Below are positions 13,611 to 61,701 of a stretch of DNA of 64,000 nucleotides, piece by piece. The translations under genes were made by a program, and so were the position numbers. The first letter of the stretch is position 1. Each line of letters starts with the position of its first letter. This stretch comes from Neocallimastix sp. 'constans'. Taxonomy: Eukaryota. A model generated the notes under the pieces. The model was given only the letters and a program-made list of their open reading frames with translations, was not told the DNA's origin and did no database searches. The stretch is taken from assembly GCA_050613775.1 (NCBI GenBank), contig JBODTK010000152.1:62001-126000 (forward strand), in the 5' to 3' direction.

Positions 13611-13627
13611 TGTAACGAATCCTAAAG

Positions 13628-14600: not shown

Positions 14601-14609
14601 TTGCTCCAT

Positions 14610-21490: not shown

Positions 21491-21587
<97 letters not shown>

Positions 21588-38820: not shown

Positions 38821-39768
38821 TAATTTACTAGTTATGTGTTACGGTACAATTAAATAAAGAAAAATTAAACTATTTAAAGAAAATATTAAAGTAAAAAATA
38901 TCATTAACAATTATAAATAAATAATAAAAAATTGAATATTAAAATATTAGTTATAGAATATTATAAAGTTAAATAAAAATAATTAGATGTATTAAAAAAT
39001 CATGTATTAATTATATTATTTAATATTGTAAAATTTTTATATAATATTTTAATAATTTAGAAAATTTAAGCTTATTATATTTTTATTACTATATTTTTAT
39101 TATTAAATTTTTATTATTAAATTTTTATTATTAATTTTTTTTTATTTTTATTTTTAATCCAATCAAATAAATATTTTATTAGTATAAAAAAGAACAAAGT
39201 AACACAATACTTTTGTTCTCTCCCTTTTTTTCTTACGACTTTATTATTATATTATTTTTTTAATATTTTCTAAAAGTTAAATAATAAATTAAATAGTTTA
39301 AAATAAATTAAAATTTATTAAATAGTTTTTTCTAAATTTAATGTTTTAAAAGTGTTTAATTAATAGTTTTTTTGTGTTTAGTGTATAATATTAAGATAAG
39401 TATAGTATAAAATTAGTTTAGTAATAGATTAGTTGTATTAAACATTTTATAGAAATAGTAATAGATTTAGAGAAATTGTTTAGTTTAGATTAGAATAGTT
39501 TAGATTAAGATATTAGTTTAAGTTATTTTAACTTAGTTTAGATTCTTTTAGATTAGGATAGTTTAGACTAAAATTAGAGTAGTTTATTAATTAATTTAGG
39601 TTTAGAATTAGAGAATAATATTTTAAATTTTTCCTTATTATTAGAATATATTATTTTATTAATAAAATCTTCAGATCTTGTACCATAAAATTTGGCGAGC
39701 TATGCAGGACCTGAAGAGATAAAATAATATGAAAATAATAATTTGAGAAAATTTTAATAATTAATAAG

Positions 39769-39813
<45 letters not shown>

Positions 39814-40542
39814 TTATTCTAAAATATTATTAATAGTAGTTATAAAAAATTAATAATTATTAAAAAAAAAAAAAAAAATTTGTTATTTTTACTTTTTTGA
39901 GAATATTAAAATCAAAAAGTATAATAATTCATATACAGTGTTTAAACCGGTTGAAAATTAATTAGTAAAGAATTAGGGTGATTCCAATTTTTTACTAATT
40001 AAGGTTTTTAGTCGATCTCGTGAGTGCGTGAATACGTCCCAAAGTAATAATTATACTCCCCACGGCACTTTCCGTAGTTTATCAACTATCCGAGTGTTGT
40101 CAGGGTTTTTGGACAAGATCGAGCACTGGAACAATAATGAACTTATATCACCGAAGGTATAAGGTTTTCTTTTTTAGAATTATTATATTAATATAAAATA
40201 AAGTCGCGTCAACAATAAATAAATCGAAATATTCAGCAAAAATTTTTTCAGTTTATTAGCAATTAAAATTTCAATTCAGTAACAGTTTAATTTTTCAATA
40301 TTTAGTTATTTCAAAATTTAGTTTAATTAAGATATAAATTTTTTTTTTTAATCATTCATCCATCCATCAACTTAATAAAAATATACAATTAAAAGAATAT
40401 ATTAATTCATCAATTTAATAAATAAAACAATTAATTATAATAAAAATAATAAAAAATAAATTTATATAAGACATTTATCTCCTCATTCATCCATCAATTC
40501 ATCAATTAAATATTAAAAGCATTAGATTTTTTTTTTATCAAA

Positions 40543-41538
40543 ATGAAAATTTTAGAATTGGAAAGGCTATTACCCAGACTTAACGAAAGCGCAAGGGATG
40601 TCGATTCATGGATCGATGAATTTTCAAGAATAATGGCACTGGCTGATATCACCAATCCAAGAAGCATTCTTACCTGGGCAATGGAGTGTGTAGAAGGAAA
40701 GTTGAGGGGCACTTTACAAGAACTACATACAATAGATGAGGAAGGTAATGAACATTTTCCATCAATGAGAGAAATAAAAGAAGCAATTGAAAATTCATTA
40801 GAAGTAACTCCACAAGAGAAATGTAAAAGACTACAACGAATGAAAATTCAAAGAGGAGAAAGCATAAAAAACTTTAATTGGAGATATAGGAAAATTTATA
40901 ACAGTCTACCAAAATTGTACCAAACATTTATAACAATAGAAGATTATGCTGATTCGATTATCTACCGTCCTTATGCTAGATCACAAGTAATAACACAACG
41001 ATGTATAGATCTTGAAGATGCTTTTGAAGAAGCAGAGTTAGCTGAAAGAGCTGAAGAAGGAGGAAATCTTAAAAATGAAACCGTGATGATGACAGTATTT
41101 AATTCTCAACCATTCTATTACCGAAGTAACACTCATCCATTTAAGCAATTCAATTCTCCAAGTTATAATTATAATTATAATGGAAGACAATTTTACATTA
41201 AGAAAACTCCTCGAAATTATACAAATTATAATGAAAATAGAGAATTTACAACTAATAATTTTAATACTAAATTCAATTCTAAAAATGAAATTATGCAAAG
41301 TAATAATTTGGAAAATACCACACAAAATATTAAAGATAGTAAAATAAGAAATAACTTGGTAAATAATGAAATCAAACAAGCCAGAAATACATTTAATTCT
41401 GAGAAATCCCACATTATTTGTTACCGTTGTGGACAACAAGGACACATTTATAAACTATGTCCTTATTCCTTTAAAGAATTTGCTAAACTAAGAAATCAAA
41501 ATAATACAATAAATTTAAACAATCATTTAAACTTCTAA
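40543..41538 (+). CDS. D Gag
   Basis: 331-aa ORF with CYRCGQQGHIYKLC knuckle; similar to E Gag. Confidence 0.9.
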   Translation: MKILELERLLPRLNESARDVDSWIDEFSRIMALADITNPRSILTWAMECVEGKLRGTLQELHTIDEEGNEHFPSMREIKEAIENSLEVTPQEKCKRLQRMKIQRGESIKNFNWRYRKIYNSLPKLYQTFITIEDYADSIIYRPYARSQVITQRCIDLEDAFEEAELAERAEEGGNLKNETVMMTVFNSQPFYYRSNTHPFKQFNSPSYNYNYNGRQFYIKKTPRNYTNYNENREFTTNNFNTKFNSKNEIMQSNNLENTTQNIKDSKIRNNLVNNEIKQARNTFNSEKSHIICYRCGQQGHIYKLCPYSFKEFAKLRNQNNTINLNNHLNF

Positions 41539-44500
41539 ACGGGAGAAGGGAAACTCCCAGTAATCAAACCAATGATGAAATAGTAGCTACTGCAGTTAGA
41601 AGAAAAGGAAAACAAGTTTTTGAAAAACCATATTCAAGAGATAAAAGAAAACAAAATGAAAATAAAGTAAATGATAATATTTCTAATTCTAATAATATCA
41701 TACAAGAAGATAATGAAGATATAGAAATTGAAACCAACGAAATAAATACAATATCTAACACTCCTATAAATGAAACCGAAAGACTTGAGGAGATTGATGT
41801 GTCAGTTATTGCGCAACCCTCAATCAACAAAGCTAAACGAAATTCAAAGAAACAAAAAGAAAAAGAAATATTAGAAAGCACTAAGAATCTCGAGGTTAGT
41901 TCTAATAAAGAATCTAGAGTTAAACTTCCAAGTGTAGAATTAGAAGAGAAGAAAGTTAAAACCAACAATCCCAATAAACAAATAACCATTATGGAAGGTC
42001 AATCAAAATATGATATTTGTAAAGACATAAGTACTAGGTTTGCTAATATTACATTACCTCAATTATTGGATGTTAGTCCTAAACTCCGTGCTGATATTGT
42101 AAAGGCCTTAAAATTAAAAACTACAGAAACAATTAAAGAGACTCCTGAAGAAGTTGTATTATCTGCTATACGTAGGGAAGATGTTGCTACAGTTGAATGT
42201 TTAATTAATGGAGTCCAAGGTATTGCATTTTTAGATACAGGCGCAAGCATTAATATTATTACTAGACAATTTTTAAACAAGTTAGGAGATGTAAAACCAA
42301 TTGGATTTGTTAAAAATAATATTGTTCAATTATTATCTAAAGAGAATGTTAATACTGAAATCTACTTGCTAAAAGTTCAACTTGGAGATTTAGCTATTCA
42401 TGATATATTCCGAGTTATAGATAATCACCAAAACCTATTTGATGTTTTAATTAGCTATAAAACACTTAAAGAAAATAATTTATTTATTAATCCTATTAAT
42501 AATAATTTGTGCATAATGAAAGAAAATAACAAATGGATGTGTGTCAAAAATCTTTGCAAAGAAGAGAAAGGAAATGTTATTAGTGATGATGAAGATGCTG
42601 AATCAATAATTATATATGATAAAACAAATTCTGATATTAATAATAATTCCTATCTTTATTGCTTTGTTAATGAAATTGATAATATTAATAACAACTTAAC
42701 AATAACTCAAAATAAAATAGAAGACTCTAAAACAATAACTAAAGAAGTAGATATCATTAATGAAAATGGTGTTTTTGAAAAAGATCAACTCCTGCAAAAT
42801 ATACTTAAAGGAATTCCAAAAAAGCTAAGAAATGAAGTAAAAAAGTTATTTGATGAATATAATACTATTCTTGCCACAAAAATTGATGAGTTAAAACCAA
42901 CTAAATTGTTACCTCATAGTATTCAACTCGAGCCTAACGCTAAACCGATTAAACAGAGATGTTATCGACTTTCTAAAGTTCAAGCATTAGCTCTTAAAAA
43001 GGAATTAGAAAAACTTATAAAAAATAAACTAATTGAACCATCACACTCCCCTTGGTCTTCTCCCGTTATTTTAGTGCCTAAGAAAAATAAACAGTGGAGA
43101 ATATGTATAGATTTTCGAAAACTAAACAATCTTACTATTAAAGATGCATATTCGTTACCGCTTATAGATGAAATTTTATTTTCTATCGGGAAAAAAGTTA
43201 AAGTTTTTACTACGATTGATTTATTTTCGGGATTTCATCAGATCCCTATGAAAAAAGAAGATATTCCTAAAACTAGCTTTGCTACAATGTATGGTAACTA
43301 TCAATTCTTAGTTATGCCCTTTGGTTTATGCAATGCCCCAGGTACTTTTCAAAGGGAAATGAATAGAATATTCTTTCCTCTTATTGGAGTATGCATGTTT
43401 GTTTATATCGATGATCTAGTTATATTTTCACCCTCCTTTGAACAACATATTATAGATATTAAGAAAGTGTTTGATATTATCAAAGAAAATGGATTAAAAA
43501 TTAACTTAGAAAAATGTCATTTTTTTAAAATAAAAGTCGAATTGTTAGGACATACTTTATCAATTAATGGTATTTCCCCTATTCAAGCTAAAGTTCAAGT
43601 CATATTAGAATGGATACCACCAAAAAATGTTACACAATTACAATCTTTCCTTGGTGCAGTGGGTTATTACCGTAAATTTATTCTTAACTTCGCTAATATA
43701 GCAAAACCATTATTTAAACTTGTTAAAAAAGGTGTAAAGTTTGTCTGGGGTAAAGAACAAGAAGAAAGCTTTAATTAGTTGAAACTAAAATTAGCATCTA
43801 CTCCTATTCTTGTTATGCCTGACTTCGAAAAACAATTTATAATCAGAACGGATGCCTCTTTCGATGGTATTGGAGGTGTTTTACTTCAGAAAGATGAGAA
43901 TGGTATTGAAAAGCCAATTCACTTCGTAAGTCGCTCTTTAAAACCGGCGGAAAAGAATTATTCAATAACTGATCTTGAAGGAACTGCCGCGACTTACTGC
44001 GTTCAAAAATTTAAATCTTATATTTCTGGAAATAAAAATGAAACTCTTTTATTCACCGATCATAAACCTTTAGTTGGACTTTTCAAAAATAAAGAAACTA
44101 ACAATTCTAGACAAACTCGATGGGTATTACTTCTATCAATGCTAAAAGTTAAAGTCTTATATGAACCTGGAAAGAAAAATGTCATCGCTGATGCACTTTC
44201 TAGATTATCAACAAAAGAAAATACAATATTAACAACTGTTACTGAAGAGATAAATGAAAATAATCCGTATAACTTACTTACAAAATTTAAAGATAAATTT
44301 ACAATAATTAATAACGAAGAATATTATAAAGACCATGGAAAACTTAGAAAAGTTATAAAAAATCAAAACGAAAAAATTGATTTAATACTAAAAGCTCACA
44401 AAGTTGGTCACGAAGGAGTATTTAAAACTTACAATAGACTTAAACGTGACTACTATTGGATCAACATGATACTTGACGTTAAATACATTGTCAGAACTTG

Positions 44501-45437
44501 TGATAGGTGTCAACACTTTAGATCGCAATCTTTTAATAACCAAACAGAAGATATTGCTACTCAACCTGGTTTACCATTTACGAAAGTTGGCTTGGATATA
44601 GTAGGTCCACTTCCTACTTCAAGAAAAGGAAATAAATATATAATAGTTTTAGTAGATTACTTAACAAAGTGGGTTGAAGCAGAACCAACCCAAAATATTG
44701 ATTCAGATGATGTAATAGAATTTTTATCCAAGATTTTTGCTCGATTCGGAATACCAGAAATATTAGTAACTGATAACGGTCCATAGTTCTGTTCTGATAA
44801 AACAAAAGCATTCTTAGACTTATATGGTGTTTATGTTAACTTCGTTGTTACTTATCATCCAGAATCTAATGGTCAAGTAGAAAATCGAAACAAAGAAATA
44901 GGCAAATACCTTAGATTACTTTGTAATAAAAATACATCAATATGGGATGAAATGCTACCTAGTGCTTTATGGGCCTTGCGTACTTGTAAAAATGAAACAA
45001 CTAAATTTTCAAGTTTTGAATTGTTATATGGCCGACGTGACCTTCAGTCGTTTGAATTACAATTAAACTTAGATAAAAAGGAAAATTATGAAAGTGATGA
45101 TGAATTTTTAATTAGAAGATTTACAAAACATTATAAATGGATCAAGGAAGCCATAAATAATATTCAAACAGCAAACAAAATCTGGGAAGATAGAAGAAAA
45201 CAAGTAAAAAGACTTAAAGCTAATTATAAACCAGGAGATCTAGTATTAATCAAATATATTAATAGAAGAAAACTTGATCCATACTTCTTAGGTCCTATGA
45301 AAATTGTTAAAAAACAATTCAATACTGTAACGTTATGTGATCCATTAACAAACGAAATTGCTGAAAGAAATGTCCACTTAAAGAATATTATACCTTATAG
45401 ACTATGCGAAATTGAGACTTCAAGGGACGAAGTCTGA
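41526..45437 (+). pseudogene. D pol (-1 frame) with two premature TAG stops (about 43778 and 44786)
   Basis: FLDTGAS, YIDD, TDAS, HHCC and integrase core. Three track ORFs lie in one frame separated by single stops. Confidence 0.9.
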
Positions 45438-46307
45438 ACTTAGGGGTGGCATCATGTTACGGTACAATTAAATAAAGAAAAATTAAACTATTTAAAGAAA
45501 ATATTAAAGTAAAAAATATCATTAACAATTATAAATAAATAATAAAAAATTGAATATTAAAATATTAGTTATAGAATATTATAAAGTTAAATAAAAATAA
45601 TTAGATGTATTAAAAAATCATGTATTAATTATATTATTTAATATTGTAAAATTTTTATATAATATTTTAATAATTTAGAGAATTTAAGCTTATTATATTT
45701 TTATTACTATATTTTTATTATTAAATTTTTATTATTAAATTTTTATTATTAATTTTTTTTATTTTTATTTTTAATCCAATCAAATAAATATTTTATTAGT
45801 ATAAAAAAGAACAAAGTAACACAATACTTTTGTTCTCTCCCTTTTTTTCTTACGACTTTATTATTATATTATTTTTTTAATATTTTCTAAAAGTTAAATA
45901 ATAAATTAAATAGTTTAAAATAAATTAAAATTTATTAAATAGTTTTTTCTAAATTTAATGTTTTAAAAGTGTTTAATTAATAGTTTTTTTGTGTTTAGTG
46001 TATAATATTAAGATAAGTATAGTATAAAATTAGTTTAGTAATAGATTAGTTGTATTAAACATTTTATAGAAATAGTAATAGATTTAGAGAAATTGTTTAG
46101 TTTAGATTAGAATAGTTTAGATTAAGATATTAGTTTAAGTTATTTTAACTTAGTTTAGATTCTTTTAGATTAGGATAGTTTAGACTAAAATTAGAGTAGT
46201 TTATTAATTAATTTAGGTTTAGAATTAGAGAATAATATTTTAAATTTTTCCTTATTATTAGAATATATTATTTTATTAATAAAATCTTCAGATCTTGTAC
46301 CATATGT

Positions 46308-46946
46308 TGATACGGAACTAACTAATAATTCGTATTATACTATTGGAAATTATAATTAAGTTTAATAACTTTATGTATTAAATATTTTAAACTATTTTTA
46401 TAATTCCAAAATTTTATTCTTAATTTAAAATAATTATATAAATTATCAAATTAAATTGATTAATGACTAATTATTAAAAAATTATTATTTAATTAAATTG
46501 ATTAATGACTAATTATTAAAAAATTATTATCTTATATTAATTAAATTGTTTTATTATTATATTTAATTATTATTAATATTAAATTGTTTCAAGAATTATA
46601 TTATCAAAAATATTACCAATAATTTTATTGTTAAATTTTTTAATTTTATCATTAATAATATTTGTCATTAAAGATAATATTAATTATATTAGTATTAATA
46701 TTTTTATTATTAAAATAACTCTTAAAAAATATTATTTAAAATCACATGTAATAATTATACTAATAAGAATTAAAATAATTTAAATTATTATAAAAATTCA
46801 TGTAGTAAAAAAGTATAAAAGAAAAAGAAAATACTTAATAAAAAATCAGGAGTTAAAAAAATAAAAAAAAACTGGAAATTGAAATTAAATTATTAACTAA
46901 TATATTATTTTCATTTTTTTTTGAAGTTTATTGTGTACCTGCACCA
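46308..46946. mobile_element. Solo LTR H1
   Basis: tgatacgg...gcacca; TSD atgt; near-identical to H2. Confidence 0.88.
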
Positions 46947-46949
46947 ATG

Positions 46950-47649
46950 TGTAATAATCTATTTATAATATACTAACTATAACTAGATTATTAATATTTT
47001 AAGATATAAAAATTTATACTTAACTTTATATAGAGTTTATTATAAACACTAAATATTGAAATAAACAAAAAGACTTTATTTTCTTTTAATTTATTATATA
47101 GCATTATATAATAATAACTCTAATTTCTTTAATCAAAGAAATTTGAGTTCTTTTATACTTTTTTATTTATAATTATTTTAATAGATGAAATTATTAAATA
47201 GATGTAATTATTAAATAAATAAAATAGATAAGATAAAGTTAACAAATCAAATAAAGGTATCTAATCTTAACAAATTGATATTCAGGAAAAGATTAGTAGA
47301 AAAACCTGAATAACTTCGATTAATATTCTAATATATTAATCATCGTATTAATTAATAAAAACCCAATCATAATAATATTGGGGAAAAAATTAATTAACCG
47401 ATTACTAAAATCTTATTAATTATCAACTAATTGAAATAATAAAATATAAATAATATTTTTAAGTAATTTTTTTTTTTTTTAAGTAATTAATACATTACAA
47501 CAAATTTGTTTACATTATTTTTCAATATATTAATTTGGATAAATTAATATATTTTTTACATGTTAATAAATATTGAAATATAAATGAAATATAAATTAAT
47601 TAAATAAGAAGATAGATTATTTTATAAGAAATAAATCTATATTCTTACA
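46950..47649 (-). mobile_element. Solo LTR I (B family)
   Basis: tgtaataatc...ttcttaca; right TSD ttatg; B-family motifs. Confidence 0.85.
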
Positions 47650-47652
47650 TTA

Positions 47653-48123
47653 TGGTACGGGACGCCCTGATAACTATGAAATAAGCAATAAATTTGAAAA
47701 TAAAGTTATAAGATTAAATATTTAAATTTTTAAAAAAATAAACAATTATAACCTTAAATTAGATAAAAAAGAATATAAAAAGATGTAAATAAGAAAATAA
47801 TTATAAGGAGAGAGAGATCAGAAAGAAAAGAAAGAAAAAAAAATATAAATAGGACAAAAATATAAAAAAATGTAGTGTAGAATGGAGATATAATAAGAAA
47901 TAAAAATATATAGTTAGTTAGATTATAATAAAAATGTAGTAATTAAAATAATGTATAATTAAGTAATATAATAAATAAAAAAAAAATATTAATAAAATAA
48001 TAAAAAAAAATATTTTAATAATAAATAAATAAAAGTTCTTAATTTATGTGTTTATTCAATTTAGAATAATTTATCTTAACTAGAGAAGTGTCAAAAAAGC
48101 CCAAGGTACAATAACACGAACCA
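47653..48123. mobile_element. Solo LTR J
   Basis: tggtacg...cgaacca inverted ends; right TSD gtta. Confidence 0.8.
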
Positions 48124-48129
48124 GTTATT

Positions 48130-49059
48130 TGTAAAGAATAATAATTAATTTTTATTAAAATAAAAAATAATTATTAATCTTTATTAAAATAAAAAATAAT
48201 TATTAATCTTTATTAAATAAAATAATAATTATTTAATAAAATTTATTAACTTTATTATAAAATATTTTTAATATAAAATTATTATTAATAATTTAAAATT
48301 AATATTGTAAAATTATTATTCTTTATCATTGTATTAATTAATAATATTAAAATAATTAAACATTAATATTTTTTATATTTGTTAAAATTCATTTGATAAT
48401 TATATGTTAAGTTTTAATTTAAATAATTGTTACATTAATATAATTTTAAACAAATCTAATATAAATTATAGAATTATAATTTAGAAATAATTATAAAATT
48501 ATATTAAAATCATAATGTAACAAATCAAATGAAAAAAGAATAATTAATATTTAAAAAATTAATTAAAATAAAACAATGTCATGTATAATTGACATTGTTT
48601 AAATAAAACAAATGTTAATTGAAGTTTTCCGATTGGAAAATATCGGTTTTTATTCAATTAACATATGATCAATTTTATTAATAATTGATCATTAAACTTT
48701 TTAGGTTTTTCTCCCAAATCTTTTCCTAAAAAGTTATTCATTAAGATTTGGAACTTTACTATAAATAATTCTTGATTTTCTTTATTTTGAAAATCAAGAG
48801 TTATTATTATAAGAATATAATTATAATAATAAACAAAATAAATTTTTAATTTTTTAAAAATAACAAAAATCTAAATAAAAATTATTTTTAATAAAAAATA
48901 TTTTAATAAAAATTTTATTTGAACTAATCTCTTATAATAAACTCCTACCCTATTTTAAGTTTCGTTAAGTATTTTCTTTTTTTTTAATTTCTCGATTAAT
49001 ATTAGTATTAATTGTAGAAAAGGGTTAAATTTAATTAAGTTTAAATTTAATTCTTTACA
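48130..49059 (+). mobile_element. Solo LTR K (B family)
   Basis: tgtaaagaat...attctttaca perfect inverted ends; TSD ttatt on both sides. Confidence 0.88.
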
Positions 49060-49096
49060 TTATTGGAACGTTACGTTCAGAAAAATATGAATTTCT

Positions 49097-49128
<32 letters not shown>

Positions 49129-49499
49129 TTTAAATTATTTAAATTTATATTTAATTAGTTTATATGAATAAGTAAATAAATAATGATATTTATTTAACAA
49201 ACAATTAAATTATTAAATTAAAGTATATTTTTAATTAAAAGTTAGTATTTTTATTTATGTAAATAATAAACTAAATAGTTAAATAATTTTAAATTACTAA
49301 TATTTCTAAATAATATGTATTTAAAATAAATATTTTTAATTATTTTTAATATGTATTTAAAATAGATATTGTTTATTATTTTTAAGGTATATTTAGTTAA
49401 AATATATTAATTCAATTTATATTAACAATTAAATTGTATAAAAATTATAAAATAAAAATTAGGAAAATAATCAAATAGTATAAAAAAATATTAAATTAA

Positions 49500-49536
<37 letters not shown>

Positions 49537-49791
49537 ATATAAATAGGAAATTTTACAAAAATAAATTTTTAGGAAAAAATAATAATATTAATAAAATAAA
49601 ATAAAAATAAATAAAATATTATAAAAATAATTAATATAGAGCATTACGTCCCAAATTTCTGGTGGAGAATCCGGGCGTATGCTCTATGAAATATTATATA
49701 CCATTATAAAAAAAAATTATATATATAACTTGTTATAAAATATTTATATAAAAAAAATATATATTGCTAAACATAAACTTAATAATACACT

Positions 49792-50784
49792 ATGTTGGAT
49801 GCTGCTAAAATCAAAAGAGAACTCCCACGCTTAGAAGATTATGGGAAAAATGTTCTCGAATGGGTGGATGATCTTAAGGAATACCTTCTTCTTTATGATA
49901 TTACAGAACCAAAGAAGGTATTCATTTGGGTACTTGCTGCCGTAGAAGATGATGTTAAAGACGCCGTTAAAGCATTAGCTATTCGGAGAAATGGAGAAGA
50001 ACGTTATCCCAAGTTCAGCGATATTCAAAAAGCGGTAGAAAGCTATCTAGAAATAACAGAGGGTGATAAATGGGCCATTTTACGAAACTTAATGATTGCA
50101 GAAGGTGAGTCATTAAAACAGTTTAACCACCGTTACAAAAAATTATATCACAATCTTAATCGGGACTACCAAAAGTTAATTACCGTTAAAGAATACAAGG
50201 ATTCCATTAGCTCTACTGTTTTTCCGTGTTCTCAAGTGTCTATTGCCAAGGTAGATACTTTACAGGAAGCATATGAAATTGCTGAGCTTGCGGAAACTAC
50301 CGAAAAAGAAATTCAAGAAAGAAATGAGGAATTACAACTAAAGAAGAAAAAGAGCTCAAGAAACACTACCATGGTTACGCAAAACAGAAGTTATATGACT
50401 AGCCACCCTATATACCAGAATTTCATAGAAAAGGAAGATAATTACCAATACAAGGATGAGTTAGGATATATAAAAACCCCTTTTGGTTACAATAGGAATA
50501 GTAATCGAAGATATCAACCAAGAAATTATTATTCTAAGCCAAATCCAATTTCAGATAGAAGATTTATGGGCAACCTGAGGACAGACAAGAAACAAATCTA
50601 TTTTAAAACTATTCCGAAAAGAGTAACATTTGATACTAACGATAAAGAAGCTAAAGATGAGCTTTCCAAGAAATCTAGTACTTTTAGGTGCTTTAGATGT
50701 AATCAACTTGGTCATAAGTCACCAGAATGTCCCTATACCTTCAAAGATCTAGCGGAAATGGAAGAAAAGGGACTTTTAAATTAG
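49792..50784 (+). CDS. E Gag
   Basis: 330 aa with CFRCNQLGHKSPEC knuckle. Confidence 0.92.
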   Translation: MLDAAKIKRELPRLEDYGKNVLEWVDDLKEYLLLYDITEPKKVFIWVLAAVEDDVKDAVKALAIRRNGEERYPKFSDIQKAVESYLEITEGDKWAILRNLMIAEGESLKQFNHRYKKLYHNLNRDYQKLITVKEYKDSISSTVFPCSQVSIAKVDTLQEAYEIAELAETTEKEIQERNEELQLKKKKSSRNTTMVTQNRSYMTSHPIYQNFIEKEDNYQYKDELGYIKTPFGYNRNSNRRYQPRNYYSKPNPISDRRFMGNLRTDKKQIYFKTIPKRVTFDTNDKEAKDELSKKSSTFRCFRCNQLGHKSPECPYTFKDLAEMEEKGLLN

Positions 50785-53700
50785 AGGATGGGAGAAGGAA
50801 AACTTCCAGTAAACAAACCAGCATACTTACAGCTAATCAAGAGCTGAATGACCAAGTCCATACTACAAATGCACATGCCGAAGTCGTTATTCCAGCAATA
50901 AAGAAGAACATCCCTAGAAACCAGAGAAATACTCCCTATGCTAAACCAAGGTCAATAAATAACTCTGATTTAAAAGAAAATCCAGTGCCTATATCAACCC
51001 CTGCTATGGTTTATAATTCACAACCACAACAACAAGAAAGAACTAAAAATACAAAAGTTAAGAAGAAGGAAAATGTCAACGCTATTACCAACCAACAAGG
51101 GAACTCCAACGACTTAGCCGAGAACAGGGAACCAGTAGATATGGAAATGAATCCAGGGGAGTCAGAACAAGTAACTAAAACTGCTAATACTTCTCGGTTA
51201 GATCAATTAGATTTGTCTTATTTAGCCGAGAAAAGAATAGAACCCGTTAAACGAAGTAATAAAGAGGAGAGGCTGAAAGAATTAAGAGAAGGTAGCCTGA
51301 ATGAAGATAAAGAACAAGACCTGGCTGAAAGGGTGACGAATCTAGAACGTCACATCCGCTTGATGGACGGGTTTGAAGAATATCTAATAGAGGACCTAGT
51401 GGATAAGGTAGCCGACACTGAAGTTGGTACCAAATTAGTCCATTTATTTGATCTCTTTCCAAAGTTTCGTTCGGCTTTCCAGAAGAAATTAAAGTTAAAG
51501 CCAAAAACAACATCAAAAACAATTACCAATGAAAGTGTGATCACTAATGCAGTAAATGTAATAAGTGAAAATAAAATCTCAAAAGTTTATGGGCAAATAG
51601 AAGGACAAAATGGCGAAATCTTTCTAGACTCTTGTGTTAGTATTAATATGGTTACTCGTGCTGCTTTGAAGAAGTATAAAATAAACAAAAAGCCAGTTGG
51701 AAACATCACCGAAATGATATTACAAGCATATATCAATACTACTATGTCTTCCGATATCTATGAACTAGAGATCTCTATAGGACCAGTAACTTTTAAAGAT
51801 TATTTCAGAGTTATTGAAAAGGACGATCTATTTGAATTATTAATTGGGGTAGATTCACTTAAGAAACATAAATTAATACTAAACTTTAATGATGATACGT
51901 TGTATACTACTGATAAAAATAATTTCCCAATAAGACTTGCATCAATTTATTACGATTTACGTTTAAATGCTGACGACGAAAATAATGAGACCTCAGAAGA
52001 AGTGGAAGAAGTAGATGCAAGTAAACCAGTAAATATAACCGTGTCCCTGATTACAGCAAATGAAGAGTCATTGGATAATAAGGAAACACGTGTTGAGAAA
52101 ATTATTAATTTAATCCCAAAAGTGGTTAAGGATCCAGTTACCAAGCTGTTCGAAGATTTTAAAGACATTTTGGCCATGAAAGCAGACGACTTGAAACCAA
52201 CCAAACTTCTACCACACAGGATCATACTCAAACCAGGAAGCAAGCCAGTCAAACGGCGAGCATACCGTTTATCGAAGATTCAGGCTCAAGCGTTAAAGAA
52301 AGAGTTAGAAAAATTGATAAACAATGGCCTGATAGAACCTTCCCACTCTCCTTGGTCCTCTCCAGTAGTATTAGTTTTAAAGAAAAATGGTCAATATAGA
52401 ATGTGCGTGGACTACCGGAGAGTTAACAGTTTAACAGAAAAGGATGCGTACGCTCTACCTCTCATTGACGATATCCTTAGTTACATTGGAAGGAATCAAG
52501 TTCTATCAACTATTGATCTATTTTCGGGTTACCACCAAGTGCCAATGTACCCGGAAGATCAAGAGATAACTTGTTTCACAACACTTTATGGAAATTATAA
52601 CTTTAAGGTCATGCCCTTTGGGTTGTGTAACGCTCCCGCAACCTTCCAAAGGGAGATGAATAGGATTTTTTTTAACTTAATTGGTAAGAGCGTTTTTGTT
52701 TACATTGACGACTTGGTTGTTTTCTCTCCTTCTTATGAACAGCATGTTAAGGATCTTAGCGAGGTTTTCACCATACTACAAGATAACGGATTGAAGTTGA
52801 ACTTGGAAAAATGCCATTTCTTTCAAGAAGAAGTGGAATTGTTAGGTCACGTCTTATCTACCAAAGGTATACAACCAATTCCTGAAAAGGTGAATGTTAT
52901 TTATAATTGGATCCCTCCAAAAGATGTATCTAAACTTCGTTCATTTCTAGGAGCAGTTGGGTATTATCGAAAGTTTATTAAGGACTTTGCCCAAATTGCC
53001 AGTCCACTTTTTCAGTTGTTAAAGAAAGATTCAAAATTTGAGTGGACTAAGGAATCCGACTTAGCTTTTAAGACTCTCAAAGAAAGATTAATACAGGCCC
53101 CTATACTAATACCACCGGATTTCAATAAACCATTCATTATAAGAAGCGATGCATCTCGTACTGGAATTGGAGGCGTCATCATACAAAAGGATGATAATGG
53201 AGTTGAGAAACCAATTCATTATGTTAGTAGAGCGCTGCGGAAGGCTGAAACTAACTATAGTGTTACCGATTTAGAGGGAACTGCAGCATTATACTGCATA
53301 AAGAAATTTAAATATTATATTTTAGGAAATAACTTAGTTACTTCATTGGTGACGGATCACAAACCCCTAGTTGGAATCTGCAATAATACGGAGCCCTCTA
53401 ATAACCTCCATTTAAAGTGGGTAACTACGTTAAGTGCTCTTCAGGTTAAGGTTCAATTTGAGGAGGGAAGGAAGAATGTTATTGCCGATGCTCTGTCCAG
53501 GATGGATACTATGAAAAAAATAGAAGAATTGGAGAAGAAAGGTAATGAAGTGGTACTCGTCTCGCAAAATATTGAAGATTTTATCAAGAGTAGAATCGTC
53601 GAAATAGAAGGAAAGAAATATTATAAACAAAACGGAAGACTTAGGAAAATAGTTGACAACGAAGAAGAAAAGTTAAAGTTGATTGAAGCTGCTCATGCCA

Positions 53701-54707
53701 TAGGTCACGAAGGTATTTATAAAACATACCATCGGTTGAAACCCAATTATTATTGGAAAGGAATGAATAGAGAAATCCAAACCTATATTAGATGCTGCCC
53801 AAAATGCCAAATGTATAAACGCCAAAAGCAAAATGAAAATGTAGAAAACTTACCAACCAAGCCGGGATACCCATTCTCCAGAGTCGGATTGGATCTTGTT
53901 GGACCGTTACCAAAGACAAGAGCTGGGAACAAATATATAATAGTCTTAGTGGACTATTTAACTAAATGGGTGGAAGCTGAACCATTAAAGGAAATTGGTT
54001 CAAATGATGTAATAAGATTTCTAAAAAAAGTATTTGCTCTTCATGGGGTTCCTGAGCTGTTGATTACAGATAATGGGCCACAGTTTTACTCAGATAAGAC
54101 CAAAGCTTTTTTGGATCTCCATGATGTTTACGTAAATTATGCAACTACGTACCACCCCTCGACCAATGGAGAAGTCGAAAACAGGAACAAGGAAGTTATT
54201 AAGTATTTAAAATTATTAGCCAACGAAGAAGATGATTGGGATGAGATTCTACCCAGTGCTTTGTGGGCCTTGAGGACATGCAAAAATGAAAGAACAAAGT
54301 TTAGTAGTTTCGAACTATTGTATGGACGCCAAGATCTACAACCATTGGAATTAACATTAAATAAGGAAAGTAGGAATAAATATGAAAAGGAAGAAGAATA
54401 TTGGCTCCAGAAATTCATACAACACCACAAGTGGATCAAGGAAGCAGTAGAAAATATCGAGACTGCAAATAAACTATGGAGTGACCGCCGTAAACAAATA
54501 AGAAGAATGCGTTCGTATTATAAACCAGGGGATCTAGTATTAGTCAAGGTTTTCAATAGAAGAAAGTTAGATCCATACTTTACCGGACCTTTAAAAATAA
54601 TAAAAAAGGAGTTCAACACCGTTACTGTCTGTGACCCGATATCTGGGGAAATTGCTGAAAGAAATATACACTTAAAGAACGTAATTCCCTATTTTTCTGA
54701 ATTATAA
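50775..54707 (+). CDS. E Pol (PR-RT-RH-IN), -1 frame, no chromodomain
   Basis: Open 1326-codon frame; FLDSCVS (atypical protease motif), YIDD, SDAS, HHCC, ITDNG..E. Confidence 0.92.
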   Translation, partial: FKLEDGRRKTSSKQTSILTANQELNDQVHTTNAHAEVVIPAIKKNIPRNQRNTPYAKPRSINNSDLKENPVPISTPAMVYNSQPQQQERTKNTKVKKKENVNAITNQQGNSNDLAENREPVDMEMNPGESEQVTKTANTSRLDQLDLSYLAEKRIEPVKRSNKEERLKELREGSLNEDKEQDLAERVTNLERHIRLMDGFEEYLIEDLVDKVADTEVGTKLVHLFDLFPKFRSAFQKKLKLKPKTTSKTITNESVITNAVNVISENKISKVYGQIEGQNGEIFLDSCVSINMVTRAALKKYKINKKPVGNITEMILQAYINTTMSSDIYELEISIGPVTFKDYFRVIEKDDLFELLIGVDSLKKHKLILNFNDDTLYTTDKNNFPIRLASIYYDLRLNADDENNETSEEVEEVDASKPVNITVSLITANEESLDNKETRVEKIINLIPKVVKDPVTKLFEDFKDILAMKADDLKPTKLLPHRIILKPGSKPVKRRAYRLSKIQAQALKKELEKLINNGLIEPSHSPWSSPVVLVLKKNGQYRMCVDYRRVNSLTEKDAYALPLIDDILSYIGRNQVLSTIDLFSGYHQVPMYPEDQEITCFTTLYGNYNFKVMPFGLCNAPATFQREMNRIFFNLIGKSVFVYIDDLVVFSPSYEQHVKDLSEVFTILQDNGLKLNLEKCHFFQEEVELLGHVLSTKGIQPIPEKVNVIYNWIPPKDVSKLRSFLGAVGYYRKFIKDFAQIASPLFQLLKKDSKFEWTKESDLAFKTLKERLIQAPILIPPDFNKPFIIRSDASRTGIGGVIIQKDDNGVEKPIHYVSRALRKAETNYSVTDLEGTAALYCIKKFKYYILGNNLVTSLVTDHKPLVGICNNTEPSNNLHLKWVTTLSALQVKVQFEEGRKNVIADALSRMDTMKKIEELEKKGNEVVLVSQNIEDFIKSRIVEIEGKKYYKQNGRLRKIVDNEEEKLKLIEAAHAIGHEGIYKTYHRLKPNYYWKGMNREIQTYIRCCPKCQMYKRQKQNENVENLPTKPGYPFSRVGLDLVGPLPKTRAGNKYIIVLVDYLTKWVEAEPLKEIGSNDVIRFLKKVFALHGVPELLITDNGPQFYSDKTKAFLDLHDVYVNYATTYHPSTNGEVENRNKEVIKYLKLLANEEDDWDEILPSALWALRTCKNERTKFSSFELLYGRQDLQPLELTLNKESRNKYEKEEEYWLQKFIQHHKWIKEAVENIETANKLWSDRRKQIRRMRSYYKPGDLVLVKVFNRRKLDPYFTGPLKIIKKEFNTVTVCDPISGEIAERNIHLKNVIPYFSEL

Positions 54708-54790
54708 CCAATTAAAGGACTTCAAGGGACGAAGTCTACTCTTAAGAGGGGACGTCTTGGAACGTTACGTTCAGAAAAATATGAATTTCT

Positions 54791-54863
<73 letters not shown>

Positions 54864-55226
54864 AAATTATTTAAATTTATATTTAATTAGTTTATATGAA
54901 TAAGTAAATAAATAATGATATTTATTTAACAAACAATTAAATTATTAAATTAAAGTATATTTTTAATTAAAAGTTAGTATTTTTATTTATGTAAATAATA
55001 AACTAAATAGTTAAATAATTTTAAATTACTAATATTTCTAAATAATATGTATTTAAAATAAATATTTTTAATTATTTTTAATATGTATTTAAAATAGATA
55101 TTGTTTATTATTTTTAAGGTATATTTAGTTAAAATATATTAATTCAATTTATATTAACAATTAAATTGTATAAAAATTATAAAATAAAAATTAGGAAAAT
55201 AATCAAATAGTATAAAAAAATATTAA

Positions 55227-55269
<43 letters not shown>

Positions 55270-55393
55270 ATATATAAATAGGAAATTTTACAAAAATAAA
55301 TTTTTAGGAAAAAATAATAATATTAATAAAATAAAATAAAAATAAATAAAATATTATAAAAATAATTAATATAGAGCATTACGTCCCAGTTAT

Positions 55394-56891
55394 TGATACG
55401 GGGTGTCACTAAATACCTTGTATTTCCTATTAAATACTCTTAATAATAATAAAATAAAATTATTATTAAATATTCTTATTAAAATCTTTTATTAATATCA
55501 AATATAATAAAAATTATTATTAAATATTCTTATAAATTTCTTTTATTAATATTAAATATAATAAAAATTATTATTAAATATTCTTATAAAATTCTTTTAT
55601 TAATATTAAATATAATAAAAATTATTATTAAATATTCTTATAAAAATCTTTTATTAATATTAAATATAATAAAAATTATTATTAAATATTCTTATTAAAA
55701 TCTTTTATTAATATCAAATATAATAAAAATTATTATTAAATATTCTTATAAAAATCTTTTATTAATATTAAATATAATAAAAATTATTAAATATTCTAAT
55801 AAAAATCTTTTATTAATATTAAATATAATAAAAATTATTATTAAATATTCTTATTAAAATCTATTATAATAAAAATTATTATTAAATATTCTTATAAAAT
55901 TCTTTTATTAATATCAAATATAACAAAAATTATTATTAAATATTCTAATTAAAATCTTTTATTAATATCAAATATAATAAAAATTATTATTAAATATTCT
56001 TATAAAATTCTTTTATTAATATCAAATATAATAAAAATTATTATTAAATATTCTTATTAAAATCTTTTATTAATATCAAATATAATAAAAATTATTATTA
56101 AATATTCTTATTAAAATCTTTTATTAATATCAAATATAATAAAAATTATTATTAAATATTCTAATAAAAATCTTTTATTAATATTAAATATAATAAAAAT
56201 TATTATTAAATATTCTTATTAAAAATTATATAATATTTAAATCATTATTAATTCTTATTTTTATATTAAGAATAATAAAAACCTATTTCAATAAATATTT
56301 GATATAAAATACAGAATTATAAGTTTCTGTATAATATTTTCTAAACCTTTGAAATAAACTAAAAATAAATCAAAAATCAAAAATAAATTAAATCTTTATT
56401 AAAAATAAAAATGAACTAAAATACAGAATTTCAATAATAAAAAAATGATCTAAAATACAGAAAATATCAATTCTGTATAATTCTCTCTCTGAAAAACAAT
56501 ATCAAGAAGAAGCTACCGCCCGGAATGCCCTTCGTGATACAATCTCCAAATTAATTTTTTATATTTTAATTTAATAAATGTTATTTTTTTTTTTTAAAAA
56601 ATAATTTAAAATAATAGTTAAAAATTAAAATAAAATAGTTATAATAGTTTTTTTTTTAAAGAATATATTAATAATAAATAAAATGTATTAAAATAAAAGT
56701 ATAAAAAGAAGAATAAATTTCTTTCTTTTTAATACTGGGAACAAATAATTTTAATTTTAAATTTAAATAAAGAATATTTTAAAATTTAATTTTTTTTTTT
56801 CTTGTTTCCAAACTTATTTTTATAGTTATGTGTTAATATTTATTTTTTTTTTGTTTTGAATATCTTAGTGTTTCAACCCCAGCCCGTATCA
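55394..56891. mobile_element. Solo LTR L (1.5 kb) containing a 54-bp tandem array (about 55450-56225)
   Basis: tgatacggg...cccgtatca perfect 9-bp inverted ends; TSD ttat. Confidence 0.82.
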
Positions 56892-56895
56892 TTAT

Positions 56896-57932
56896 TGATA
56901 AATAACAAAATTATTAAATTAAAATAAATAATAAAAAAACAAATTCTGTCTAACTTAACCCAAAAATTAATCCATTCTAAAAAAAAAAATTAAATCCATA
57001 TTTAAGAAAAATTAATTAAATAAAAATAATTAAAATAAAATAATAATAAATTAATTAATCATTAATAATTTTAATTAAAAACTAAAATAAATTAATAAAT
57101 AATATTTTTCTAAGACTACAAATAAACAAAATAATAAACATATTTAATAAATTATAAACAACAAATAAACAAACTTATAAACAACGCAAAATTAAAATTA
57201 AATAGTTAAATAATTTTTTAAGTTACTTTTATTTAAAATAATGATTATTTTATTTATTTTATAACTCAACTTTTATAAACAAATTGTAATTAAAATAACA
57301 TTTTAAAACTCATCTTTATCAACATTTTAATTGTAAATATTGTTTAATTTAATAATAAATTATTCTTTATTTCTCTTTTATTAATTTTATTATTTTTAAT
57401 GTAAATAGTTTAAAATCAAAGAAAAATATAAAAACATGTAAATATTTCTTATAAATTATTCTTTATTATTAATTAGTTAATAAATTATTATAAATATTTT
57501 ATTAGTTTTAATAATCAAAAAGTATGATTATTAATTATTTAATAAATTATTATAGATATTTTATTAGTTTTTAATAATCAATTTTTATGATTATTAATTA
57601 TTTTTGATAAATTATTATATATTTTATTAGTTATTAATAATCAATTTTATTATTAAAATTTAAAATAAATTAGTATAAGTAATAAATATTTCATTTTATT
57701 ATTTTATTAGTTTTAACAATTATTTTATTAATTTAAACAAAATTAATTATTAAATAAATAAAGATTAATATTAAAATAAAAATAAATTTTTTTAATAAAA
57801 CATTTTTGTGTTTAATAATAAAACATATTTATTTTTTTTAAATTTCTTAAATCAATTTTATTCAGTATTTATCCTTTTATTCACTTCTACAAAATTTAAT
57901 TTTTGTAGATTAAGAATATTAGGTATAAATCA
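56896..57932. mobile_element. Solo LTR M
   Basis: tgat...atca ends; TSD ttat on both sides. Confidence 0.75.
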
Positions 57933-57936
57933 TTAT

Positions 57937-58655
57937 TGATACGGAACTAACTAATAATTCGTATTATACTATTGGAAATTATAATTAAGTTTAATAACTT
58001 TATGTATTAAATATTTTAAACTATTTTTATAATTCCAAAATTTTATTCTTAATTTAAAATAATTATATAAATTATCAAATTAAATTGATTAATGACTAAT
58101 TATTAAAAAATCATTATTTAATTAAATTGATTAATGACTAATTATTAAAAAATTATTATTTAATTAAATTGATTAATGACTAATTATTAAAAAATCATTA
58201 TTTAATTAAATTGATTAATGACTAATTATTAAATAATTATTATCTTATATTAATTAAATTGTTTTATTATTATATTTAATTATTATTAATATTAAATTGT
58301 TTCAAGAATTATATTATCAAAAATATTACCAATAATTTTATTGTTAAATTTTTTAATTTTATCATTAATAATATTTGTCATTAAAGATAATATTAATTAT
58401 ATTAGTATTAATATTTTTATTATTAAAATAACTCTTAAAAAATATTATTTAAAATCACATGTAATAATTATACTAATAAGAATTAAAATAATTTAAATTA
58501 TTATAAAAATTCATGTAGTAAAAAAGTATAAAAGAAAAAGAAAATACTTAATAAAAAATCAGGAGTTAAAAAAATAAAAAAAACTGGAAATTGAAATTAA
58601 ATTATTAATATATTATTTTCATTTTTTTTTTGAAGTTTATTGTGTACCTGCACCA
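57937..58655. mobile_element. Solo LTR H2
   Basis: Same family as H1; TSD ttat on both sides. Confidence 0.88.
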
Positions 58656-58660
58656 TTATG

Positions 58661-59561
58661 TGTAAGAAATACAAATAAATTTATTAATAATTCATTTACA
58701 TTTCTTAGTTATTATAATTTATTTAATTTAATATTTATTTATTCATTTAATAATATAGTCATTTTATTTAACTTTATATTTATTTATTCATTTAATAATT
58801 ATAGTTATTTTATTTAATTTTATAATTATTTATTCACTTATATTTATATATTAGTTTAGAAAACAATATTAAGGTTTTTCCCAAGTTAATTGGTTTTACT
58901 TAATATTGATTCATCTAGAGTTTTTCCGCTAATCTTTTCTCTAGATGTAAAAAAGTTAAGGTTAGCAAAACTTTCAATAAATTATTTAATTTTATATTTT
59001 TTTTGGTTAATTATAATTTTTAATTTTAAATATACTACTTCCTATATAATAATGAATTTATACAAATTCATTAAGTAAAGGGAGCAATGTAAGAAACTTA
59101 GATAAATTTATTATAAAATTTATCTATCTTTCTCATTTAATGCATTAATTTAATACATTAAATTATTGTATTTATTTTAACCAATAATATTTAATTATTA
59201 ATTTATATATATCTGATTCTCTTGAGTTCTCTTCGAGAAATCAAGAGTTATTATTTTAGAATTTTTATAATAAATAATAATTCAAATAAAATAATTAATT
59301 AATAAAACAAAACCCTTTTAATAAAACATTTTTTATAAATATTTGTGTCTTTTATTCCTTTTGTGTTATTGTTTATTATAAACTTTCTATAATAAACTCT
59401 ATCTTATATTTAAGTTAAGTATAATTATTTATTTATATTATTTTATATTTATTTAATTATATTTAATTTTATTTTCTCAAATTAATGTTAATTAGTAATA
59501 ATTAATGTTAATTTGTAGTTAAGAAATTATTTATAATTAATTTTATAAGTAATTTCTTACA
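58661..59561 (+). mobile_element. Solo LTR N (B family, with an internal PPT-LTR junction)
   Basis: tgtaagaaat...atttcttaca; TSD ttatg on both sides. Confidence 0.82.
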
Positions 59562-59568
59562 TTATGTG

Positions 59569-60402
59569 TGTTAGAAATTGAAATAAAATTTCTTTTATAT
59601 CAATTTCTAATCTACAATTTTATATTAATAATATTATTATTAACTAAAATTGAGAAATTTAAATTTGTTTTATTAAAATAAATCGAGTTTATTATAAGAA
59701 AATTTAAATAAATTTAATTTTTTTTAAGATTAAAAAAGAATAAATTTGTTGTTATTAATTTATAAAATTTTATTGTTATTATTATTTTTCTTATAATAAT
59801 AACTCTTAATTTCTAAAAGAACTTAAGAGTCTCTATTTATACTTTTTCAAAATTTTAAATTAAATATTGTCTAATCTTAACAAATTTCTTATTTAGGAAA
59901 AGATTAGAAGAAAAACCTAAATAAGTTTCGATTAATATTCTAAACATATTAATCATCGGATCATTAAGTAAAACCGATACCAATCAGTATTCGGGAAAAC
60001 CTTAAAGATCGATTTTCTAATTATTTTTATAATAAATAATTTTAATTAAATGTCCAAAATAAATAATAAAAAAAAATTAAAAATTGAAAAAATTTGTCCA
60101 AATTTAGAAAAAATTTTTTGTTATGAAAAATTTTAAATAATTTTTGATTATGTCTAAACATTTAAATAACAATTATAACGAATAAATATTAACTAATATT
60201 AATAAAATTTTTAATTATTAAGTTTAACTAATAATTGGTTAACTACTCCTAATTTTTAAATAATTTTACATGTAATAGTTATAGTACATTGTTACAAAAT
60301 AAATAATGATAATGTAAAAATAATGTATTTCTAATTATTAAGTATTTAATACATAATAAGAAATAATAATTAAAATTTAAAAATTTATTATTATTTCTTA
60401 CA
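59569..60402 (-). mobile_element. Solo LTR O (B family)
   Basis: tgttagaaat...atttcttaca; TSD atgtg on both sides, which duplicates the TG of P. Confidence 0.85.
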
Positions 60403-60405
60403 ATG

Positions 60406-61371
60406 TGATAAAGAATGCCCAAATAATGTTCTTTTGGTTATGCATCTTAAATGATTCATTTAACCCTTAAACAAATTATTTGATTCTTTATTCTTTTGGA
60501 ACTTTCTATATTCTAATAAATTAATCTATATTCCTAATTAGTACAAATTAAATTATACTATTTAAAAAAGTATATTTAATATTAATTCCTTATCTATGCT
60601 ACCTTTATTATTCTTATCTATATTTTATTATTATTAAAATCCTTATCAATATTATATAGTTTATTTTATCAATTTTCTTTATAGTTTATCAAAATCTTAT
60701 CAATATTTCTTTTATTAATATTAAACTTATCAATATCAATTATTTCTTTGGAAAATTCCAAATTAAAAAATTGTATTAATGATTACTAATAAAAGATTAA
60801 ACATAAAAAGAAATAATTATATTATTATTATATGTTTTATTATAAATATTATATTATAAATTTGATGAAATGATTATAAATTTTATATTAATAATTTAAA
60901 TAATATTATTTTTCTAAACTTAGTAAAATTAAACTTTAGGATTAAATAAATATTACTAAACCACAGAATTAACTTCTGTAAAATAAAAAAATTTGTCTTT
61001 TAAAATATATAATTAAGTAGATTAGTAATAAATAATTAGTAATAGATTAATATATAAGTATTATTTATTATAAGTTAAAGAATAATTATATTAATAATAA
61101 AAAATTAATATAAAATGTTTAATAATTAATTTTTATTATACAAAGAAATGGCTTTACCATTTCTATTATTTTAAGAAAAAAAAAATATAAATAACAGTAA
61201 AAAAATTGTATTTTTTTATATTGTAATTTAATATTGTAATTTTTAAATAAAATTTTAATAAAGGATTTATAAAACAAAAATTTATTTTGTTTATTAATTT
61301 TCTTGTTTGTTTATTTTTTATTGTTTATATTAATACTTATTTTTATTTTTCCCTCTCTCCGAACCTTAACA
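60406..61371. mobile_element. Solo LTR P; oldest member of the stack
   Basis: tgataaag...ccttaaca; right TSD tatg, followed by the last 12 nt of G. Confidence 0.8.
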
Positions 61372-61701
61372 TATGAGTTTCGTTACAACCCGGTATTAGC
61401 CGGATATCAAAGGTTCGTTTACGATCAATTTTGTGCCACTGTTAACCATCCGGAGTAATGGTTCCTGGAGGAGGCAGTGTCAAGAACTGACGATATTTGT
61501 ACTGTGATTAAATTAATCCATTATTGGATTAATTAAATTTATAAAATTTAATGAAAAATTAATAATTTTAACTTAATATTTAATTATATAAGTGAATCAA
61601 TAGTAATTGTTTAAATAAATTTTAGTTTAGTTAATGAATAGTTGAATAAACAAATTAAAAAATCATTTAGCAGAATTAAAATATAATAATCTACTATATG
61701 C

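Follow-up and report, generated by a model that had tools for sequence, protein, structure and literature searches.

In the window (the whole 64,000-nucleotide stretch of Neocallimastix sp. 'constans' DNA that was analyzed), 12 insertions of LTR retrotransposons, representing 11 LTR types, were found end to end at one spot, and all of them had entered on the upstream side of a tRNA-like A/B-box module, 14-18 bp from its +1 equivalent. The LTR that carries this module in its 5' end belongs to another retrotransposon family. This arrangement probably reflects Ty3-like targeting of Pol III start sites in Neocallimastigomycota, with a mobile LTR serving as the target. Counted outward from the module, the elements likely run from the most recent insertion to the oldest.

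The host LTR and its tRNA-like module

The array was embedded in a nest of elements, and its host features were as follows.

32613..62781, plus strand: element C, the outer Ty3/gypsy element, with LTRs starting at 32613 and 61478, target-site duplication (TSD) TATAA
38275..38836, minus strand: main part of the host solo LTR X (LTR positions 13-574), within the 3' end of C's pol
61376..61387, minus strand: first 12 bases of X, displaced 22.5 kb by the array
38760..38820, minus strand: tRNA-like module in X, with +1 equivalent at 38820, A-box-like sequence at 38813-38803 and B box at 38769-38760

Element C sits inside a Copia element and contains RT, RNase H, integrase and SH3 domains according to Pfam, and its LTR pair differed by 10 substitutions over 531 columns. 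The rebuilt empty site of the array was a 574-bp solo LTR (X), colinear, including its 5' end, with three intact homologues, namely the 3' LTR of element B, L001 and L002. X was flanked by the duplication ACCCG (38270-38274 and 61388-61392), and the empty X site restored the reading frame of C, which continued to a stop. The B box was found at LTR position 80 in 4/4 copies, of which L001 and L002 had been retrieved with a pattern that demanded the B box, and it also forms an arm of a short hairpin conserved in all four, which offers another possible reason for its conservation.

An A-like box and a B box were present at tRNA spacing, followed by a T run within about 25-35 bp, and a TATA-like motif was detected downstream in the X-family LTR. 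Both module copies in the window had an exact B box and an A box with 1-2 mismatches to the consensus (two in X). The B-box consensus matched three times in the window, two of these being the modules; the combined A+B pattern matched twice, both times at the modules, which is weak against shuffled sequence in that 9/100 shuffles also reached two. The module was rejected as a tRNA gene, as no tRNA match was returned by ARAGORN or Rfam and no cloverleaf with a paired acceptor stem was found in it; Rfam gave no other identity for it either. The sole match to the module pattern in the genome contigs (L003) was a GC-rich bacterial chance match and was dropped.

A second X-family copy, also cut, was revealed in element B.

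13611..13627, plus strand: 17-bp stub of the B 5' LTR, X family, cut at +17
13628..18831, minus strand: element Q, gypsy, chromovirus-like clade, without chromodomain
30842..31371, plus strand: 3' LTR of B, not interrupted, second module copy at 30877-30930

The stub was identical to the beginning of B's 3' LTR, B was flanked by the duplication GTTAT, and the frame of the Copia host was continuous across the empty B site. The 3' LTR of Q (13628-14600) adjoins the stub, while the Q 5' LTR and the remainder of the B 5' LTR are missing, and no remnants of either were found between 14601 and 30841. Q cut the B 5' LTR at the target TAAAG, at a position equivalent to 15-16 bp, a value inferred from the far junction, the only one left. 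Upstream of the B 3' LTR, a PPT and a 776-aa gag/SH3/chromodomain ORF were identified (PF00385, E 3.2e-17), and L001 contained a 1409-aa gag-pol-chromodomain ORF (PF00385, E 2.2e-15) followed by the family LTR, with only the 3' LTR on the contig. As judged from sequence, the chromodomain at the integrase end assigns the host LTR family to the chromoviruses. Three of the five X-family LTR 5' ends seen (B 3', L001 and L002) carried no insertion.

Structure of the insertion array

From left to right, the array consisted of the following elements.

38837..46302, plus strand: D, full-length gypsy element without chromodomain, LTRs of 849 bp, TSD TATG, pol with two in-frame stops
46308..46946, no strand assigned: H1, likely solo LTR, TSD ATGT
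46950..47649, minus strand: I, Q-related solo LTR, TSD TTATG
47653..48123, no strand assigned: J, likely solo LTR, TSD GTTA
48130..49059, plus strand: K, Q-related solo LTR, TSD TTATT
49064..55388, plus strand: E, full-length non-chromodomain gypsy, gag and pol open, TSD GTTAT
55394..56891, no strand assigned: L, likely solo LTR, internal 54-bp tandem array, TSD TTAT
56896..57932, no strand assigned: M, likely solo LTR, TSD TTAT
57937..58655, no strand assigned: H2, same family as H1 but inserted independently, TSD TTAT
58661..59561, plus strand: N, Q-related solo LTR, TSD TTATG
59569..60402, minus strand: O, Q-related solo LTR, TSD ATGTG
60406..61371, no strand assigned: P, likely solo LTR, TSD TATG, module-distal

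All 12 elements were bounded by TG...CA and both orientations were represented. Their re-derived duplications agreed letter for letter with those of the original prediction, and the element bounds bore out its claim that H1 uses the T of I, I the TG of J, K the T of E, and O the TG of P. The CA of the left neighbour was part of 0/12 duplications. Peeling from the left, which had been predicted to regenerate the target at every step, closed with a 4- or 5-bp duplication in 12/12 steps; the left flank during peeling was ACTAGTTATG, varying by -2 to +2 bases, and the reconstructed empty site reads ACTAGTTATG followed by AGTTTCGTTACA.

D, E and Q were classified as Ty3/gypsy elements by their TG...CA LTRs with TSD (one LTR left in Q) and the order PR-RT-RH-IN, and the chromodomain was absent from all three. 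The top PDB match of E pol was Ty3 Gag-Pol. Searches of the viral contig collection with E pol, with Q pol, with the start of the D LTR and with the module pattern detected no relatives. The 10 short array elements would be products of LTR-LTR recombination. H1 and H2 were ruled out as the LTR pair of a single element because each has its own TSD.

Position of the insertions

The original prediction held that position is set by distance from the module and not by target sequence, and this was supported. The array elements share one offset, and Q made its cut there too, in another target sequence. No fewer than two gypsy lineages were represented at this offset (the array, and Q in B's 5' LTR). 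Pure sequence targeting was rejected on account of the 590 + 593 TTAT copies within the array that carry no insertion. Five further insertions in the window were located at least 495 bp from any B box.

Order and age of the insertions

Among the 66 pairwise orders, 7 were forced by the footprints, all with the left element younger and none with the right element younger, and I and J were each module-proximal at the time of landing. Growth anchored on the right was rejected, because P cannot be removed first and right peeling fails at once. The predicted polarity therefore stood. The complete predicted series, with P oldest and D youngest, is likely but was not fixed by the footprints, since 8/12 elements could be youngest on this evidence. 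Ambiguity had been expected only among neighbours with the same duplication (L/M/H2); it proved far wider, with 9,979,200 of the 12! orders compatible with the footprints. It had also been claimed that J and E duplicate the g of actaGttat, present only beside the module. The duplication of this base was verified, and its uniqueness failed: the G recurs after any G-bearing TSD, so E is not forced to be older than J.

The predicted rise of divergence from D towards P was not observed, in a test of LTR pairs that has almost no power. LTR substitutions numbered 1 in D, 0 in E and 0-1 in H1/H2; module-proximal D combined its single substitution with two pol stops, and mid-array E combined none with open frames.

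Simulations, whose offsets and motifs were fitted to the observed array, gave left-peelable arrays in only 37/1500 and 29/2000 runs when junctions were random, so that the observed closure exceeds chance. The full pattern (left-peelable, at least four elements blocked) appeared in 1185/2000 anchored runs and 9/2000 random-junction runs.

In CRISPR arrays, leader-proximal spacer acquisition gives polarized growth beside a fixed anchor that is restored each time. The predicted analogy was retained for this geometry, as the array here shares polarized growth at a restored anchor, and was abandoned beyond it: the units insert themselves with variable 4-5 bp duplications, and neither a constant repeat, Cas1-Cas2 nor any sign of a spacer-like guide function was seen in the array, which was thus rejected as a CRISPR array.

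Discussion

The 12 insertions lie 14-18 bp upstream of the module likely because the element integrases are tethered to a Pol III initiation complex. TFIIIC/TFIIIB would bind the module and the integrases would dock on the complex, as in Ty3, with each newcomer landing between the module and the preceding insertion. As the A/B boxes are internal and the bases adjoining the module are rebuilt by each duplication, the target would outlast every insertion. More tentatively, the LTR of an autonomous chromovirus may have become, through its Pol III module, a mobile landing pad which traps tRNA-targeting elements newest-first while splitting its own LTR end. If so, every LTR of this kind would serve as a dated tape of active families, and possibly as a decoy drawing insertions away from real tRNA genes.

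An anchor other than Pol III, in which another protein on the GAACC-N3-GGTTC hairpin/palindrome or on the LTR end fixes the distance, would preserve the polarity. The hairpin kept in all four copies, the imperfect A box of X and the module's lack of a tRNA match are in its favour; the A-like and B boxes at tRNA spacing with the following T run, together with a distance equal to the Ty3/DGLT-A window in the accessible part of the literature, make it unlikely. Elements might instead have preferred a TTAT/TATG-like motif at element junctions, so that additions came in mixed order and the array is only partly chronological. Simulations of such a preference, fitted in the same way, were left-peelable in 786/1500 and 1192/2000 runs, and the 8/12 elements that could be removed first are compatible with it. 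Nevertheless, these simulations reproduced the full pattern in only 131/2000 runs against the anchored figure above, no duplication includes the left neighbour's CA, and Q sits at TAAAG at the same offset; one junction preference common to 11 families with two TSD sizes would also be required, and we regard this explanation as quite improbable. Since the array lies in a nest of repeats in which poly-A runs vary, it might be an assembly artefact or have arisen by tandem duplication or recombination. Such an origin is very improbable, as the 11 LTR types differ and each insertion has its own TSD, and the empty site and the host reading frame close exactly. Furthermore, at least half of the words making up the left 10 kb were present in 16/20 listed runs, which shows that the pieces exist and does not address their order.

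Targeting of the Pol III start site was compared with known systems, as described in the accessible parts of the papers cited. Ty3 of Saccharomyces cerevisiae inserts about 15 bp, and DGLT-A of dictyostelids 13-33 bp, upstream of the Pol III start (PMC5006619), and the Ty3 TSD lies within 20 bp of that start (PMC6673722). The elements here share with them the Ty3/gypsy pol order, a 4-5 bp TSD and an insertion point some 15 bp ahead of the +1 equivalent; all 12 array elements fell about 10-20 bp upstream of the A/B-box +1, as did Q at its inferred distance. DGLT-A is, like D, E and Q, without a chromodomain (PMC5006619). Differently, the host here belongs to Neocallimastigomycota, 11 LTR types of at least two lineages are involved with one site 12 deep, and the target is a motif inside the LTR of another retrotransposon rather than a tRNA gene.

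The stacking principle itself is already known. Gene-proximal tandem formation, in which a new copy enters between the tRNA gene and the older copy as in the proposed stack order, was shown by experiment for TRE5-A of Dictyostelium discoideum, which also uses A/B boxes without tRNA context as targets (PMC5391098). TRE5-A, however, is a non-LTR element inserting about 47 bp upstream, and the tandems in the accessible part of that paper are within the TRE family, with no deep multi-family LTR stack. A/B boxes in an LTR, found in the X family at motif level only, were likewise reported for Helenus/TRIMp3 (Kojima 2024, PMC10886601), also without a functional tRNA and with solo LTRs flanked by a 5-bp TSD. 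Helenus elements are short non-coding TRIMs (311-1263 bp), Copia-linked in fungi, whereas the X-family LTR ends a 1409-aa gag-pol-chromodomain ORF in L001, B retains its 776-aa ORF, and the TATA-like motif downstream sets the LTR further apart; X was thus not assigned to Helenus/TRIMp3. Helenus was not described as an insertion target in the accessible part of PMC10886601, and none of the gut-fungal genus names searched occurred in its main text or the one supplement examined.

In the accessible literature searched, which covers a minority of subscription papers, no tRNA-targeted LTR elements of Neocallimastigomycota were found, and no LTR-borne insertion target either. If our reading is right, Ty3-type Pol III targeting extends to anaerobic gut fungi, in at least two gypsy lineages there, and one retrotransposon can bear the target for others. 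The array would then record, in order, 11 families that were active too recently to be resolved by LTR clocks, and integrases specific to a portable A/B-box pad could help to engineer gut fungi that are hard to transform.

Tj1 of Schizosaccharomyces japonicus, too, is an LTR element, and its insertion sites lie immediately upstream of Pol III genes (PMC4600332). Its insertions have a single orientation, co-directional with the gene, whereas both orientations occur here and D, E and Q are divergent from the module.

Architecture of the array and of its host LTR

The window was composed of LTR retrotransposons nested in one another. At 38837-61371, twelve TG...CA elements (D, H1, I, J, K, E, L, M, H2, N, O and P from left to right, H1 and H2 being of the same family) were arranged in tandem with spacers of 3-7 bases. 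D and E were full-length gypsy elements and the remaining ten were short. Since I, K, N and O were homologous to the LTR of Q, a gypsy element elsewhere in the window, they were assigned as solo LTRs. For H1, H2, J, L, M and P, the same assignment relied solely on the ends and target site duplications (TSDs). D, E, K and N shared one orientation, and I and O had the opposite one.

The empty site of the array fell within X, a 574-bp solo LTR on the minus strand (38275-38836 and 61376-61387) with TSD ACCCG, at 13-16 bases from its 5' terminus, and the pol frame of the outer Ty3/gypsy element C continued across the empty site of X. The chromodomain element B ended with an X-homologous LTR (30842-31371), and a motif scan whose pattern required the B box detected two further family members in metagenome contigs, L001 (84% to X) and L002 (80%). 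In L001, whose 5' LTR lay beyond the contig, a PPT and a 1409-aa ORF (gag, RT, RNase H, integrase, chromodomain) preceded the LTR; thus the LTR family of X includes a coding chromovirus. The 5' ends of the family LTRs were interrupted at the array offset in two of five cases and intact in three.

The tRNA-like module and the insertion distance

A Pol III-like module was observed upstream of a TATA-like motif at positions 29-113 of the X-family LTRs (window 38820 downward; L001 1449-1522), with the following features in LTR coordinates:

36, A-box-like motif
80, GGTTCGA
104-113, T run

A tRNA was ruled out by tRNA and Rfam searches and a fold check. The A box of X had two mismatches to the consensus, the A+B pattern discriminated weakly from shuffled sequence, and the B box doubled as one arm of a conserved hairpin. 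The B-box consensus matched three times in the window, from which the chance of a B box landing in a 7-base window was calculated as about 2 in 10,000.

The +1 equivalent was set by assigning position 8 to the T of the A box, and the array element ends lay 14-18 bp upstream of it. Insertion upstream of the mature tRNA is placed at about 15 bp for Ty3 and 13-33 bp for DGLT-A (PMC5006619), and the Ty3 TSD within 20 bp (PMC6673722). At a second site, a 17-bp stub at 13611, confirmed by TSD GTTAT and a Copia host frame, represented the 5' LTR of B. It adjoined the LTR end of Q, 15-16 bp from +1, in a target sequence different from that of the array; as the near junction was deleted, insertion of Q at the array offset had to be inferred. 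The Q 5' LTR and most of the B 5' LTR were absent, and a PBS-like TGGT motif occurred on the minus strand at 19600-19625 without an adjoining Q LTR. Five other window insertions were at least 495 bp from any B box. A solo LTR at 61702-62470 (TSD TATGC) within the 3' LTR of C was distant from every B box.

Footprints and insertion order

Stepwise removal of elements from the left, each with one TSD copy, closed at all 12 steps with duplications of 4 or 5 bp, exactly those of the original prediction. The rebuilt start of X was colinear with all three homologues (B, L001 and L002), which independently confirmed this peeling. An exhaustive search over removal orders revealed that 9,979,200 of 479,001,600 orders were valid and that eight of the twelve elements could be removed first. 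Seven of 66 pairs were forced: D and H1 were younger than I and J, I than J, K than E, and O than P. All seven were left-younger and none right-younger, which ruled out growth from the right end and showed that I and J each adjoined the anchor on landing. The predicted polarity with younger elements on the left was therefore borne out for these pairs, while the full order from P (oldest) to D (youngest) depends on assuming the mechanism. The comparison with CRISPR holds for geometry and nothing beyond it.

Left-peelability by itself was compatible with a model in which elements insert at a motif at any junction (786/1500 and 1192/2000 runs in two simulation sets). The observed pattern, left-peelability together with four or more blocked elements, appeared in 1185/2000 runs with each new element anchored beside the module, 131/2000 with the motif at the junction and 9/2000 with random junctions, the offsets and motifs of the models being fitted to this very array.

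The LTR pair of D differed by one substitution and one indel, that of E by no substitution, poly-A changes aside; between H1 and H2 there were 0-1 substitutions in addition to indels. The pair of C carried 10 substitutions over 531 columns. The age gradient expected along the array was not visible in these differences, counts of 0 and 1 being too small to reveal one. Because H1 and H2 were near-identical, most of the stack probably formed fast. The pol of D had two in-frame stops and that of E was open. Part of the left 10 kb of the window was found in 20 sequencing runs.

Proposed mechanism

In the most likely scenario, TFIIIC is recruited by the internal boxes of the module and positions TFIIIB upstream. 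The incoming intasome would then dock at TFIIIB/TFIIIC and cleave the DNA at the start site, a route established for Ty3 (PMC5006619, PMC6673722). The next element would arrive at the same distance, displacing older ones outward, since the boxes stay intact and each duplication regenerates the bases nearest the module. Insertion jitter of up to 2 bases would explain why some duplications include bases of the right neighbour. Most copies would later collapse to solo LTRs. We infer the TFIIIC/TFIIIB binding, the integrase docking and the total order with fairly high confidence.

For TRE5-A, PMC5391098 shows gene-proximal tandem formation and A/B boxes outside a tRNA context serving as targets. 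tRNA-like LTRs are known from non-coding Helenus TRIMs (PMC10886601), and known targeting also includes Tj1 (PMC4600332) and is covered in a review (PMC5911963). In the literature searched, whose coverage was incomplete, neither Pol III-targeting LTR elements in gut fungi nor an LTR-borne target was reported. The array is real and well-formed, and is a variant of Pol III-targeted integration not described before in the literature searched. Speculatively, the Pol III-like module in a chromovirus LTR could be an insulator against heterochromatin, of which the same literature held no report.

Element lineages and other repeats

In a tree of 22 RT-RNase H cores, which contained no Ty3 or DGLT-A rows, D and E formed one clade (support 100/99), and Q grouped with C, the chromovirus R and L001 in a second (100/99). 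No chromodomain match was detected in D, E or Q by Pfam profile search. Despite their common clade, D had a 4-bp and E a 5-bp TSD; those of all four Q-related solos (I, K, N and O) were 5 bp. The pol of E shared 79% identity with a Pecoramyces protein, and a Neocallimastix protein was present in a cluster related to it, so the host is probably an anaerobic gut fungus (Neocallimastigomycota). In public databases, a D/E-clade polyprotein (P0053) is attributed to a bacterial MAG, probably through mis-binning of a fungal contig.

In N, an internal purine tract (59070-59100) was followed by a TGTAAGAAA motif resembling its own start and the PPT-LTR junction of Q, possibly a relic of LTR duplication. 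In L, about 15 units of 54 bp were repeated in tandem (55440-56226), and the element ended in perfect 9-bp terminal inverted repeats; L may be MITE-like instead of an LTR. At 673-5465, some 94 copies of a 51-bp unit (88% matches) formed a tandem array that was open for 1620 aa in one plus-strand frame without a Pfam match. R (19731-27499) looked intact, with 772-bp LTRs differing by one substitution, TSD CTTCC, and a 5' region carrying an 81-bp tandem array of 9.7 copies and a poly-A of 91 bases.
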